The notes below the pieces were generated by a model. The model searched no databases. It saw only the letters and a list, made by a program, of their open reading frames with translations, and had not been told where the DNA came from. This document shows, one piece after another, positions 11,597 to 28,984 of a stretch of 57,382 nucleotides of DNA; positions within the stretch are counted from its first letter, which is position 1, and every line of letters starts with the position of its first letter. This DNA comes from a virus (taxonomy: Duplodnaviria; Caudoviricetes): IMG/VR virus record IMGVR_UViG_3300012200_000006, positions 1-57,382 of that record, one strand, 5' to 3'. A program made the translations under genes and the position numbers.

Positions 11597-11855
11597 TGAA
11601 ATCACGGCAATGGAACATGCCGGCGAAATCATCAAGGAACCAGCGAAGGAATGGCTGCGTCACCAGGAACAACGGAAGAAGTACGGATGGATCGATGCAG
11701 ACTACACAGCTTTGGTAAGAATGAAGCTGGAAAAGGGAATTGAGGAATATCGCCAAGCTCTTGCCAGAGTGTACGATACGATGGGTGATCGGGGTCTAGC
11801 ACAGTTCGATCCCTTACCAGATTCTGCGGGGAATGGAGAGGCAGTAAATGTCTGA
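11559..11855 (+). CDS. Hypothetical protein
   Basis: GAGGA SD. Confidence 0.6.
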   Translation: MKLTSFSVAVLLDEITAMEHAGEIIKEPAKEWLRHQEQRKKYGWIDADYTALVRMKLEKGIEEYRQALARVYDTMGDRGLAQFDPLPDSAGNGEAVNV

Positions 11856-12129
11856 CGAGCTAAGTCTAGACGAAATCGAAGCCATCGAGAACGAAAAGCC
11901 TAAGTACCCTACGAAGCACAGGGAAGTGGAGGATTCCAAGTGGCCTAACACTTATCGCGAAGAGTTCCAGATAGCTATTCTAGAGGGGAGAGATGAAATC
12001 GAAATCAACGGAAGGAAATTCAGGATCATCTATCGTTCCCACAGATCAAACTACCTGATCAAGCCGGTCGAAGGTTTCGTACCACTAGCGGAGGTTTCTC
12101 AGCAATGGCTGGAAATGAACTCTCTCTAG
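11848..12129 (+). CDS. Hypothetical protein with N-terminal DELSLDEIEAI tag
   Basis: GGAGAGG SD; shared motif. Confidence 0.75.
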   Translation: MSDELSLDEIEAIENEKPKYPTKHREVEDSKWPNTYREEFQIAILEGRDEIEINGRKFRIIYRSHRSNYLIKPVEGFVPLAEVSQQWLEMNSL

Positions 12130-12398
12130 ATGAAATCGAAGCGATCGAGGCACAACCCGATCCTGAGCCAAGACGGAGAGTTTCTAACAAAGCCTCAGCA
12201 CTACCGAGGGACATCATGGGATGGCTCAAGGCAGAACACAGGATCTTCGATGAAGAGACAGAAGGTGGAAGATTGGTCTGTACTGTCCCGAACCATGATG
12301 AATCACAACGTGACCGATCAAAGGGAGTCGTAGTAAAGATCGGTGAGAATTGGGTTTGCCGAATGTGCTTCCTCAATCGAAGAGACATCGATGGTTGA
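12105..12398 (+). CDS. Small Zn-binding protein with N-terminal NELSLDEIEAI tag
   Basis: GGAGG SD; CxxxxH...CxxC. Confidence 0.75.
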   Translation: MAGNELSLDEIEAIEAQPDPEPRRRVSNKASALPRDIMGWLKAEHRIFDEETEGGRLVCTVPNHDESQRDRSKGVVVKIGENWVCRMCFLNRRDIDG

Positions 12399-12861
12399 TG
12401 CTGTATTCCATCATCTGTCTAACCTCTACAAGCAGCTAGAGGAAGGCTCGTCTATCGAGGATATGGACGGTGTGAACCTGAGGGTCTTTCGCGGATCATT
12501 CGTTCGTGCATATCGAACGTGCGCGATTGCTCAGTCGTACTACACCGATGTCCGTAAGTCCCTGATTAGTATGGGCTGCATCACAATGCTTCGGCAGGGA
12601 GCGCGTAACAAGCCGAGTGTCATCATCCTTCATAAGCCGCCAGAGTTGGGCGACTACGAAGTGGTGAAACATTCGGACTTGACACCGCGGCTTGACCCTG
12701 CTATTCTTGCTCAACGAGTCGATGACTTGGCCAGACAGATAGGAGGTTTCAATATACTAGAGGGTTTTAAGGATCATGAAGAAAGGCTCCGGGAGATGGA
12801 GTTGAGGATCGAAAAGATTTCGCAGGGCACTACCACACCTAAACGCAAGATCAACACCTAA
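12391..12861 (+). CDS. Hypothetical, possibly winged-helix protein with C-terminal coiled coil
   Basis: YYTDVRKSLISMGCITMLRQG...SVIILHKPP. Confidence 0.65.
   Translation: MVDAVFHHLSNLYKQLEEGSSIEDMDGVNLRVFRGSFVRAYRTCAIAQSYYTDVRKSLISMGCITMLRQGARNKPSVIILHKPPELGDYEVVKHSDLTPRLDPAILAQRVDDLARQIGGFNILEGFKDHEERLREMELRIEKISQGTTTPKRKINT
12679..12707 (+). promoter_or_regulatory. Internal sigma70-type promoter upstream of the 12878 gene
   Basis: TTGACA-17-TATTCT with extended TG. Confidence 0.6.
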
Positions 12862-12877
12862 CGAAAGGAACACAGAA

Positions 12878-25615: not shown

Positions 25616-25624
25616 GAGGAACGA

Positions 25625-25948
25625 ATGTCCGAGATTGATTTCTTAAACAAAGAGCGCGAACTCAATCTACAATTAGAGAAAGAGCTAGAAAAATGGAAGA
25701 AGATGGAAGTCCACCCGATGCAAGCTATCGGTGTAGATGTCATCCTTCTCGACGCAAGATTCCATGCACTCATTGATATGCTCAGCGAAGCCGGAATGAT
25801 CGACAAAAACGAACACCATCTTCGCTCACTCCGAGGACTACTGAGAGTTCTGAGTGAATGGCGTTCAGAACTCGAAATACAAGTAGAAAAAGCCAAGAAA
25901 GCCAGGTTGAATCGCATCTACGGTCAAGGCGGAAAGAAACTCCACTAA
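25625..25948 (+). CDS. Hypothetical protein
   Basis: AGGAGG SD. Confidence 0.7.
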   Translation: MSEIDFLNKERELNLQLEKELEKWKKMEVHPMQAIGVDVILLDARFHALIDMLSEAGMIDKNEHHLRSLRGLLRVLSEWRSELEIQVEKAKKARLNRIYGQGGKKLH

Positions 25949-26231
25949 TGGGAATTTGGATTGTAGAAGAATTAGCATGCCCCGCGTGTGAAGACGGCTA
26001 CATTTGTCTTCATGGTGATGGTTGCCTATTGGACGAGATGGCTGCCCGTGCTGCTTTTGAACTTGCTGTTCTTGATCTTCTAGCCCTAGCATTTCTTTTG
26101 GATCGTCAAAGAACAGTCCATCCGGAGCATAATGGTCATGAATGAGCTTCCACGCATCCAAGCCGAATTTCGGTCGAAATGCGCTACCTGTGGTGAATGG
26201 ATAGAAGAAGGGGATTGGATCGTCAAGAACG

Positions 26232-26477
26232 ATGACGAAGAGTGGATTCACGAAGAGTGCAATGAGTGACGAACATCAACTAAAATGTGATATAGAGCGT
26301 GAAGATGCTGTAATAAAGGCGATGAAACGCGATTATGTTTCAGGCCGTTGGACACTAGAACAACTAGAAAAACTGATCGAGAACCGTTTACAAGGTCGAA
26401 CTCCGGTTGATGCAGAAGGATGGCCGCTCTACTATGAACCATCTCTACTCGACGGAACAGAGATGTTCGCACCATGA
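26232..26477 (+). CDS. Hypothetical protein (start probably near 26262)
   Basis: ATGA coupling to the polymerase. Confidence 0.55.
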   Translation: MTKSGFTKSAMSDEHQLKCDIEREDAVIKAMKRDYVSGRWTLEQLEKLIENRLQGRTPVDAEGWPLYYEPSLLDGTEMFAP

Positions 26478-28984
26478 CTGACGAACTTTCGCTAGAACAG
26501 ATCGAAGGCATTGAGCAAGAGCAACCTCTACTGTGGGACGTTTCAAAGCGGAAGCATCCTCTCGCAGAATGTGAGACTTGCCCACTAATCAAGGCAAGAT
26601 GCGCGCCGACTACAGGGCCGGCTGATGCCACAGTAGCAGTCGTATCAAGATCGCCAGGCTACTACGATGCTCGCGCAAAGAAGCCATTTTCAGGGCCATC
26701 TGGAAAGATCCTCGATCATCTACTCGGACTATACGGAGTGAAGCGAGATGAAATTCTCACAACGAATGTCGTCCTATGTGAATTCGATGGTACCCCGCCG
26801 AAAGAAGCAGTTGCAGCCTGTAAGCCAAGACTTGATTCTGAAATTGAGAATGCCAGAACAGTTATCGCAGCGGGATCAGAATCTGTTACGGTACTTACTG
26901 GACGGAAGAGTTTGGACGGTGCCAGAGGTTACACGCACGAGAGACAACGCAATGGGCATAGACAGCGTATCATTGCAACTAACAACCCCGCTATTGTGCT
27001 TAGAGACGACTCTACATTCCCGAATCTCGTTCGAGATTTCAGACTTGCTCTTGCGCCTCTACCCCAACCCAGATTACCCGATGTAGACTGGACAAATGAT
27101 ATCGAGGAAGGGCGACGTTGGCTCAAAGCCATTAGAAAGCAGAACGTTAATCTGCTCACCTTCGATATCGAAACTCTCGGTCTTCGACCTTCTGCTGGAC
27201 TAGTTGCTGTCGGATTCGCAGATAGCGGAGATAAAGCGGTTTCCATTGGGGAACGACCATGTAGGGACAAGACTACTTATCAGGACTACATCGCACCGCT
27301 CATCCAAGACCACAGGCTCTTAGCTCATAACGGCAAGTTCGACCTACGAAATTTTAGAGCTAAGGGAATCAAGGGTATCCTCGAAGAAGATACAATGCTT
27401 CTCTCATGGGCACTCGATGAACGCTCGGACGAGGGGCAAGTCCACAAACTAGAGTATCTTCTCATGGATAACCTCAACTGGCCAAATTATGAGCCGGAAG
27501 TAGTGAGGCAATGGAAGTCCACAGTGAAGCGACTAGAAAAACAATTCAGGTACGAGGAACTCGATGAACTTCCAATCCCGGACGAATTGTACTCATACAA
27601 TGCCCTCGACGCTGCTGGAACAGCCTTGCTATTTCCGATACTCAAGAACCGCGCGATTGAAGATGGAGTGTTCGAGCTTTACCGGCGGTTTCTCATCGAA
27701 GCGAGTGAAGCTCTACTACGAGTAGAACTTCGTGGGCTGAACTACGATGTCGAGGGCGCGCTCGATCTTCTTGAAGATAAGGTATGGCCTCGGCTAGAAG
27801 AACTAAAAGCCGAGATGCAGTTGATTGTCGGAGATGGTAGCTACAACCCGCGTAGTAACCAACAGAACTCCGCGCTGGTCTACGACAAATGGCGCGTCGT
27901 TCACAATCTTCCGCTAAAGAACGATAGGACGGTCGATAAGAGTGTATACACCGAGATCGCGGCTGGAAGATTTGTTATTGCTCTTGGACGGCCGAACGAT
28001 AGTGACAGTTTGCCCGTCGGAGGCACAAGCGAAGGAGATTTACGAGCAAACGCGAAAGTTACTGCTCAAAGATGGGCTGAAAAGTTCAAAGATTACCAAG
28101 GTCTTGACAAGCAAAGATCAACATACCTAGAAGGTCTAATCAAACGGGCGGTCGCCAATGGCGGAAAACTCTTCACAGACTTTAAGCTTCACGGTACTGC
28201 TACCGGACGGCTCAGTTCGAGTAATCCAAATCTCCAAAACATTACACGAACAAAAGAAGGACTCCCCGATATTCGATCTCTCTTTGTGGCAAGCGAAGGA
28301 TGCACTCTCATCTCAGCAGATTATTCCCAAGCAGAGCTTAGAACAATTGCCCGTCTCTCTGGAGACGGCTCGCTTGGCCAAGTTTATGTTGACGAGCGCG
28401 ATCTTCATGCTTTTGCCGCAGAGCGATTCTATGGTTCTGGGTTTACTTACGAACAGCGAAGCATAGCCAAGAACATGAACTTCGGAGTCGCCTACCAACA
28501 GAGCGCCGACACTTTCCAGGAGAAACATGGGATTCCGAAAGAAGAAGCCGCAAAATACATCGAGTGGTGGTGGAAAGAATTTGCGGGTGTTAGAGAGTGG
28601 ACGAACTCAGTCTCGAAAGAGGTACTCAAAGGGGAAGTCATCTCGCCTTTCGGATTTAAGCGACGTTTTCACCTTATCACGAAGGAGAACCGGAACGCGT
28701 CCATCCGCGAAGGAATCAACTTCCTCCCACAGAATATCGCTGCATGGTTTACTAATTACGCTCTTTGTCGCCTTGTCCTTGACCATGACCTTCCTATTGC
28801 TCTTTCAGTTCACGATTCCATTATTGCTGATTGCCCTAGCAGCATGGTTAACGACGTTGTGCCTCTTCTCATTAGTGTGATGGAAAGTGCTCCGAAAGAA
28901 ACGCTAGGTTGGGATTTCCCATTTAAGGTAGAGGCACAGATCGGTCAACAATGGGGAAAATTGGAGGACTATGAAGTTTCGTAA
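26474..28984 (+). CDS. polA: Family A DNA polymerase with N-terminal family-4 UDG-like domain and 3'-5' exonuclease
   Basis: CETCPL...PFSGPSG..LD...[61 protein letters not shown]. Confidence 0.95.

Follow-up and report, generated by a model that had tools for sequence, protein, structure and literature searches.

Why should the DNA polymerase and four small, otherwise unrelated proteins of one phage begin with nearly the same acidic peptide? The question is raised by a siphovirus record (Caudoviricetes; IMGVR_UViG_3300012200_000006, CheckV 100%), the whole 57,382-bp sequence of which is referred to here as the window. Its early and replication genes occupy the + strand up to about 30 kb, and the lysis, tail and head genes (tape measure, major head protein, head protease, portal and terminase) are encoded on the - strand. 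A preliminary description of the window had listed five N-terminal peptides on unrelated proteins, all of which were verified on the + strand; they follow the common pattern [DN]EL[STD]L[DE][EQ]I[ED][AG][IVL] and are called the tag hereafter, with the proteins bearing it as carriers (Table 1). On the basis of sequence comparisons we propose, with a probability of about 0.62, that the tag is a portable docking motif read by one co-evolving partner in the replication/recombination arm of the genome.

The five-carrier tag is not a product of chance and is selected as a peptide. The motif lies within the first 25 residues of five of the 280 open reading frames (ORFs) of at least 60 amino acids, and none of 2000 shuffles of these N-termini attained five carriers, the mean being 0.009 with the core pattern and 0.000 with the strict one. 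When four patterns graded from strict to loose (the loosest being L.L[DE][EQ]I[DE]) were run over all six frames of the window, the same five sites only were returned. An all-against-all BLAST of the N-termini of the window ORFs recovered 10 of the 10 pairs among the carriers with E-values from 3e-8 to 0.04, and neither the six-frame scan nor the N-terminus BLAST detected a tag on ORFs of the structural arm. The 33-nt DNA encoding the tag is 61-76% identical between carriers, with one to five synonymous codon differences per pair, and the 33 nt flanking it on each side share 15-45% identity, which equals random. The conclusion follows from the excess of five carriers over the 0.009 expected, the synonymous codon differences and the random flanks, and it agrees with the preliminary description in placing the constraint on the peptide and not on the DNA.

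In structural terms the tag is predicted to be a short N-terminal amphipathic helix with Ser, Thr or Asp as its N-cap and a hydrophobic face formed by L..I..[LIV]. The exclusive use of S/T/D at the variable position, as claimed earlier, holds in the five tags, and in the two proteins folded with AlphaFold2 (AF2) the tag helices begin directly after T12 (orf21572) and D15 (orf12878), in line with the proposed capping. The AF2 model of orf21572, with a predicted local distance difference test score (pLDDT) of 88.5, consists of the tag helix (residues 13-20), a linker, strands 43-65 forming the zinc-ribbon hairpin and a helix at 72-102; in the orthologue alignment C52, C57 and C71 are invariant, H74 is conserved in at least 90% of the sequences, and so is L19, the last hydrophobic residue of the tag. 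The tag of this protein is well modelled (block mean 89) and may pack on its own core. In the model of orf12878 the tag helix (residues 16-23, pLDDT below 50) is detached from an alpha/beta core, the comparison of which (residues about 30-125) with the Alba/SpoVS fold is weak (best Foldseek E-value 4.5e-3, probability 0.97, template modelling score 0.3-0.5); the protein may be Alba-like and nucleic acid-binding, which is a lead only. The Pro/Gly/Gln-rich linker said to follow each tag holds in part, as judged by eye. No Pfam or PHROG family was found for the four small carriers (orf11848, orf12105, orf12878 and orf21572) and no Pfam, PHROG or PDB family for orf12343, the untagged gene between two of them. 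Profile searches of PDB with orf21572, orf12105 and orf12343 gave no match at E <0.1, Foldseek found no match for orf21572 in PDB or BFVD (best E-values 1.2 and 0.28), and a search of ESM Atlas for fold or sequence relatives returned nothing above 0.88. Matches of the orf11848 core to Ig-like repeat proteins (P0130, P0133 and P0134) were judged spurious.

The five copies of the preliminary description are the full set in the window, but the system proves to be far older and wider across relatives. Orthologues in related phages keep the tag: in large protein collections it is present in all four homologues of orf12878 (43-97% identity) and all three orthologues of orf12105 (64-85% identity), and of eight small homologues of orf11848 among 1.84e9 representatives seven have a related N-terminal helix motif. 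One of the orf11848 homologues (P0136) carries two tandem N-terminal copies of a slightly shorter tag-like helix. For orf21572, 27 tblastn matches in the related loci (160 collected, 142 of them distinct) represent 23 distinct proteins, nearly all with a related N-terminal motif. The nearest relatives, with polymerases 90% and 75% identical, are known here from protein sequences; relatives of the polymerase, orf12105 and orf12878 (P0003, P0127 and P0122) are all tagged, each is located on a 60,417-bp contig, and they probably derive from one phage. The tag type of the relatives is L-[ST]-x-[DE]-[EQ]-[IV]-x-x-L-L, and across the loci the general pattern shows a 4.4-fold enrichment per residue close to coding-strand N-termini (25 in 92,534 against 28 in 457,641 residues).

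The arrangement of the tagged genes is conserved as well. Carriers in relatives were sought by regular expression, which weak tag flavours may escape; in full-length records of distant relatives with about 45% polymerase identity it matched near the N-terminus four times in G001 and three times in G003, and BLASTP identified these proteins as homologues of orf12105, orf12878 and orf21572. A cassette with the order orf11848-like gene, a few genes, orf12105-like gene, untagged orf12343-like gene and orf12878-like gene recurs, and its tagged form is present in 7 of 10 further records. Homologues of orf12105 bear their lineage's own tag in G001, G003 and the same number (7/10) of further records, distant homologues of orf12878 do so in nine other genomes, and each of the 10 genomes examined has an orf12343 homologue (BLASTP E-values 1e-10 to 1e-33) flanked by the orf12105-like and the orf12878-like gene. 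In most loci read, the end of the orf21572-like gene is at most about 170 nt away from the Sak4-like start, two such genes lying 0.6-1.1 kb upstream, and in lineages devoid of an orf21572 homologue another small zinc-ribbon ORF upstream of Sak4 bears the tag. All carriers sit on the early/replication strand. To judge from these comparisons, four of the five carrier families, namely two zinc-ribbon families, the possibly Alba-like one and the small beta-rich one, are found in relatives with a polymerase identity of only about 43-60%. Both the orf12105-like proteins and the tagged zinc ribbons of the second family upstream of Sak4 have C.NP[DE]C (L034 2832-3143, L195 1498-1746, L013 805-1137), and the two families may be distant homologues. 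In the orf12878-like proteins of L190-L195 a basic conserved start (MAR.R.) and a Thr-rich stretch, both missing from the window protein, precede the tag.

Two broader searches of IMG/VR were also carried out. An all-against-all N-terminus BLAST over 80 loci comprising the polymerase and 10 kb on either side revealed no shared tags, because the tagged cassette lies further upstream, outside these loci. A scan with the back-translated tag returned eight stretches, with three of them in frame and no clear case of an N-terminal tag in a relative. ELSLDEIEA was encountered about 20 residues after the Met of an unrelated phage ORF of about 570 amino acids (L009 1461-1486 and L011 5565-5590), which may be a coincidence or reflect a remote use of this helix.

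The indirect evidence for a common partner comes from the way in which the tags change. Each lineage has its own tag flavour, which is common to its unrelated carriers. Two unrelated proteins of G001 have GLTKEEIDRLLAKK in common; the central Ile is replaced by Tyr or Trp in two carriers of G006, within an LFE..S..E context, and the third G006 carrier, upstream of Sak4, has Phe at the aligned position of the same context; three carriers of G007 begin with FAFE. Per 15 residues, 7.2 are shared by different families within a genome, 4.6 by orthologous tags between genomes and 4.0 by unrelated tags between genomes. Alignment-free permutation tests, with 100,000 permutations each, compared the first 60 residues of two proteins by their highest-scoring 12-mer match (BLOSUM62). 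Orf12105-like and orf12878-like proteins of 10 genomes scored 30.4 within and 20.5 between genomes, and ORFs upstream of Sak4 and orf12105-like proteins of nine genomes scored 34.9 within and 22.8 between; the observed mean was attained by none of the 100,000 permutations in either comparison. Recent gene conversion fails as an explanation, since the codon is the same for only 24 of the 58 identical residues in within-genome tag pairs, and since the G001 pair, with 14 identical residues in a 15-codon stretch, shares 5 of 15 codons and 34 of 45 bases and is preceded by unrelated DNA.

Among the 120 homologues of the polymerase listed, the window-type tag is found in three (100, 90 and 75% identity), and 102 show a conserved Cys-cluster start, with at least 12 residues ahead of it in 23. 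About a dozen of these 23 extensions are other acidic-hydrophobic peptides, all from homologues of 52-63% identity apart from the one in P0067 (45%). Polymerase tagging is, on sequence grounds, limited to a sub-lineage. Identity does not exceed 30% for any phage polymerase in GenBank, and the tag is outside all 25 matches listed. In the 62%-identical polymerase of L013 (4965-5060), none of the codons ATG, GTG and TTG occurs from the upstream stop to the conserved Cys cluster, and an ATA behind a good ribosome-binding site would yield a tag-like protein start; a non-canonical start or a sequencing error may be involved.

Several points weigh against a docking motif with a single reader. Most polymerases lack the tag, a tag-like stretch is found in only one of four distant orf11848-like proteins, and the regular expression had no match in G004. 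In the relatives the orf12878-like tag lies 20-35 residues in, behind the basic Thr-rich extension, and the tag is for this reason not strictly N-terminal. The pattern, an N-cap with a capping box, is a generic helix start that is also seen inside ordinary helix-turn-helix proteins (one G002 match), so that its loose versions are unspecific. One of the nine within-genome best matches in the Sak4-upstream test (G010) falls in the zinc ribbon and not in the tag; the permutations overstate independence because the co-variation rests on 9-10 related genomes; and older gene conversion followed by synonymous drift may be the source of the similarity. The common hub of the preliminary description has gained strong indirect support from the change in step of tags on unrelated proteins in each lineage, but that the tag binds anything, and what it binds, is inferred.

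We propose the following model for the portable docking motif. In a large family of soil siphoviruses of roughly 55-60 kb, between three and five early/replication-arm proteins with no other relation to one another would bear the tag. Small zinc-ribbon proteins of two or three kinds would be among these carriers, along with one possibly Alba-like and one small beta-rich protein and, in the sub-lineage of the window, the polymerase with its uracil-DNA glycosylase (UDG) and exonuclease domains. One common reader would recognize the helix, and tag and reader would drift together, giving a lineage flavour on all carriers. The accessory proteins, and here also the polymerase, could in this manner be gathered at one replication/recombination site. 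In a rough ranking of candidate readers the first place is held jointly, and tentatively, by the Sak4-like ATPase and a host protein; the former is considered because in most loci read it is closely preceded by a tagged zinc-ribbon gene, even where that gene is non-homologous. The orf12343 protein, a candidate because it is the sole untagged and always-present member of the cassette, comes next as a somewhat doubtful one, and the primase-helicase and the core of orf21572 are both improbable. The orf12878 protein, suggested earlier as the hub, is discounted, being itself a conserved tag carrier; of its supposed own promoter and terminator, one promoter-like site (12679-12707) can be recognized, but the region holds three such sites against 2.8 expected, and there is no terminator-like site on the + strand after the gene. 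An origin of the tag as a copy of an end of the single-stranded DNA-binding protein (SSB), Sak4 or the primase was rejected, those termini being conserved but not varying with the tag flavours.

Two alternatives are unlikely to the same degree. The first dispenses with a separate reader: the N-terminal helices would bundle with each other, joining the carriers in one hetero-oligomer. Such homotypic packing also predicts tag similarity within genomes, the exchange of Ile for Tyr or Trp in two G006 carriers, with Phe in the third, would preserve a symmetric core, and the tandem copies in P0136 would fit; a helix of about 9-11 residues is, however, short for a stable bundle, and the AF2 model of orf12878 has its tag detached. 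According to the second, the tag mimics a host peptide and docks on a host hub, which may be a CheY-like receiver, a MinD/FlhG-type ATPase or another replication or proteolysis factor. The consensus L-[ST]-x-[DE]-[EQ]-I-x-A-L-L of several lineages is indeed near the EIDALL peptide of flagellar FliM, and no receiver domain was found in the phage genome, therefore a CheY-type reader would be host-derived. The window flavour is nonetheless the least EIDALL-like and some lineages are quite different, the rapid lineage-specific drift is easier to reconcile with a quickly evolving reader from the phage than with a conserved host protein, and docking a DNA polymerase on a chemotaxis protein would serve no obvious purpose. 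A bolder version, which we regard as a long shot, is a private and fast-evolving address code with a single co-evolving receptor, in which the ancestral helix would copy EIDALL and a host CheY-like receiver or MinD/FlhG-type ATPase would serve as the replication platform.

It is very unlikely that the tag is a capsid (prohead) targeting signal as on the T4 internal proteins, by which tagged proteins would be packed in the head and injected with the DNA. The T4 sequence is likewise described as a short N-terminal peptide on unrelated proteins (PMC3012670), and a head maturation protease homologue is encoded in the window (Table 1). The carriers nevertheless all belong to the early/replication arm, and the structural genes are encoded on the other strand; one of the carriers is the replicative polymerase, another is wedged in a recombination module in most related loci read, and the structural-arm ORFs are untagged by the searches given above. 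The cleavage site of the T4 prohead protease is L-x-E, and such a site exists in the window tags, but it is not conserved in most other flavours.

Even less credence is given to a leader, degron or processing signal, either of the double-glycine/Nif11 type or as a protease tag, that would set the lifetime of early proteins. AGG follows the tag in orf12878 and in its close orthologues, and a shared degron would also co-vary within genomes. The reading as a double-glycine leader, a resemblance noted in the preliminary description, is nevertheless not supported: GG follows one of the five tags only, and no C39 peptidase (PF03412, E-values up to 1) was found in the genome. In addition, the carriers are cytoplasmic DNA-handling proteins, and the known N-terminal ClpX motifs are not acidic helices. 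Finally, that a generic helix start without shared function was copied among 5' gene ends by recombination, as the commonness of an N-cap with a capping box and the mosaic nature of phage genomes might suggest, is scarcely credible and already disfavoured, given unrelated flanking DNA, different codons for most identical residues, persistence of the tag in four families at polymerase identities down to about 43%, and five carriers observed against 0.009 in shuffles.

The coordinates of the carriers and of the genes discussed with them are collected in Table 1.

Table 1. Tagged ORFs of the window and other genes referred to in the text; start codons are our own calls.
Feature	Position	Strand	Size (amino acids)	Tag	Remarks
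orf11848	11848-12129	+	93	11854-11886, from residue 3	Small beta-rich tag carrier
orf12105	12105-12398	+	97	12114-12146, from residue 4	Zinc-ribbon-like tag carrier (C..H...C..C)
orf12343	12343-12861	+	172		Untagged conserved protein between two tagged genes; candidate reader
orf12878	12878-13318	+	146	12911-12943, from residue 12	Tag carrier; alternative start possible at 12902
orf21572	21572-21886	+	104	21596-21628, from residue 9	Tag carrier; CCCH zinc-ribbon and long helix
Sak4-like RecA-fold ATPase (AAA_24)	21840-22607	+			Pfam PF13479 1e-21, phrog_124 8e-41; overlaps orf21572 end; candidate reader
DUF669 SSB-like protein	22588-23106	+			Weak Pfam and PHROG matches; 43 orthologues in related loci
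Primase-helicase	23444-25615	+	723		phrog_10514 9e-69, RepB_primase; candidate reader
UDG (family 4) - 3'-5' exonuclease - family A DNA polymerase	26474-28984	+	836	26480-26512, from residue 3	Tag carrier; Pfam PF03167, PF01612, PF00476
Head maturation protease homologue	45326-46807	-			Structural arm

Some neighbouring features are of interest in their own right. Most of the 40 listed DUF669 SSB-like orthologues (of 43 found in loci L013-L117) end with a conserved ..GLL, the window protein ending with ..PGLI, and among distant orf21572 orthologues (L025, L026, L027, L030, L044, L057, L059 and L109) several end with ..GTL, ..LGLF or ..DYF. To judge from their sequences, these tips look like a second, C-terminal docking motif, comparable to an SSB tail and its mimics. 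Directly upstream of the polymerase (26132-26477) are two short ORFs, of 45 amino acids (zinc-ribbon-like, conserved in six related loci) and 81 amino acids, which are coupled translationally to the polymerase by an ATGA overlap. A 151-amino-acid protein encoded at 14330-14785 has an Rpf-type transglycosylase-like domain (PF06737, E-value 8e-20). Domains of this type are characteristic of Actinobacteria and the phages infecting them, and we take this one as a possible hint at the host.

Replisomes are organized by short docking motifs, the known cases being clamp-binding motifs and SSB tails. The tag would be an N-terminal helical docking motif encoded by a phage lineage, co-evolving across at least four unrelated protein families and taken up in one branch by the DNA polymerase. 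Searches of the literature on short linear motifs in phage replisomes and on capsid targeting sequences, supplementary files being outside their scope, found no description of such a tag system. It would offer a direct handle on orphan phage proteins, as an 11-residue peptide could be used to fish for the reader, and the flavours of the individual lineages would constitute a natural experiment in specificity. If portable, tag and reader could serve as an orthogonal recruitment pair.

Three kinds of known system invite comparison. By sequence, the closest known peptide seems to be EIDALL of FliM/FliY, and the FliM resemblance noted in the preliminary description, although stronger in relatives, remains a resemblance. 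EIDALL is located in helix 1 of FliM, binds CheY-P in the groove of the alpha4 and alpha5 helices and is described as conserved in all motile bacteria (PMC9126983), and it is reported as required for FlhG binding (bioRxiv 10.1101/2022.04.21.489128). It is, like the phage tag, a short amphipathic N-terminal helix with a linker before the body of the protein; it docks in a surface groove of its partner and has more than one carrier protein (FliM and FliY) and more than one reader, and the phage tag would dock in a similar way. The window tags, with E/Q-I-E/D-A/G-[ILV], match three to four of the six EIDALL positions; some relatives are nearer (..DQI.ALL, ..EEID.LL) and other lineages differ. Unlike FliM and FliY, the phage carriers are a polymerase and small replication-arm proteins without a FliM or FliN domain, and in contrast to the conservation of EIDALL the flavour of the phage tag drifts strongly between lineages. 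Like the tag, the T4 capsid targeting sequence is a conserved peptide at the N-terminus of proteins of a single phage that are diverse in other respects (PMC3012670), but the T4 cargo is packed into proheads, whereas nothing links the early-arm replication and recombination proteins considered here to the head. The partial likeness to the beta-clamp motif QL[SD]LF was not confirmed, since none of the five tags has Q at position 1 (which is E) or an aromatic residue at position 5 (which is D or E), and no sliding clamp domain (PF02768) was found in the phage genome. In logic, by contrast, the closest analogues would be the clamp-binding motifs of beta and gp45 and the acidic tails at the C-terminus of SSB and of T7 gp2.5/gp4, in which one motif on many proteins, the polymerase included, leads to one hub. 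Those motifs are C-terminal or internal and extended, whereas the phage tag is N-terminal and, by prediction, helical.

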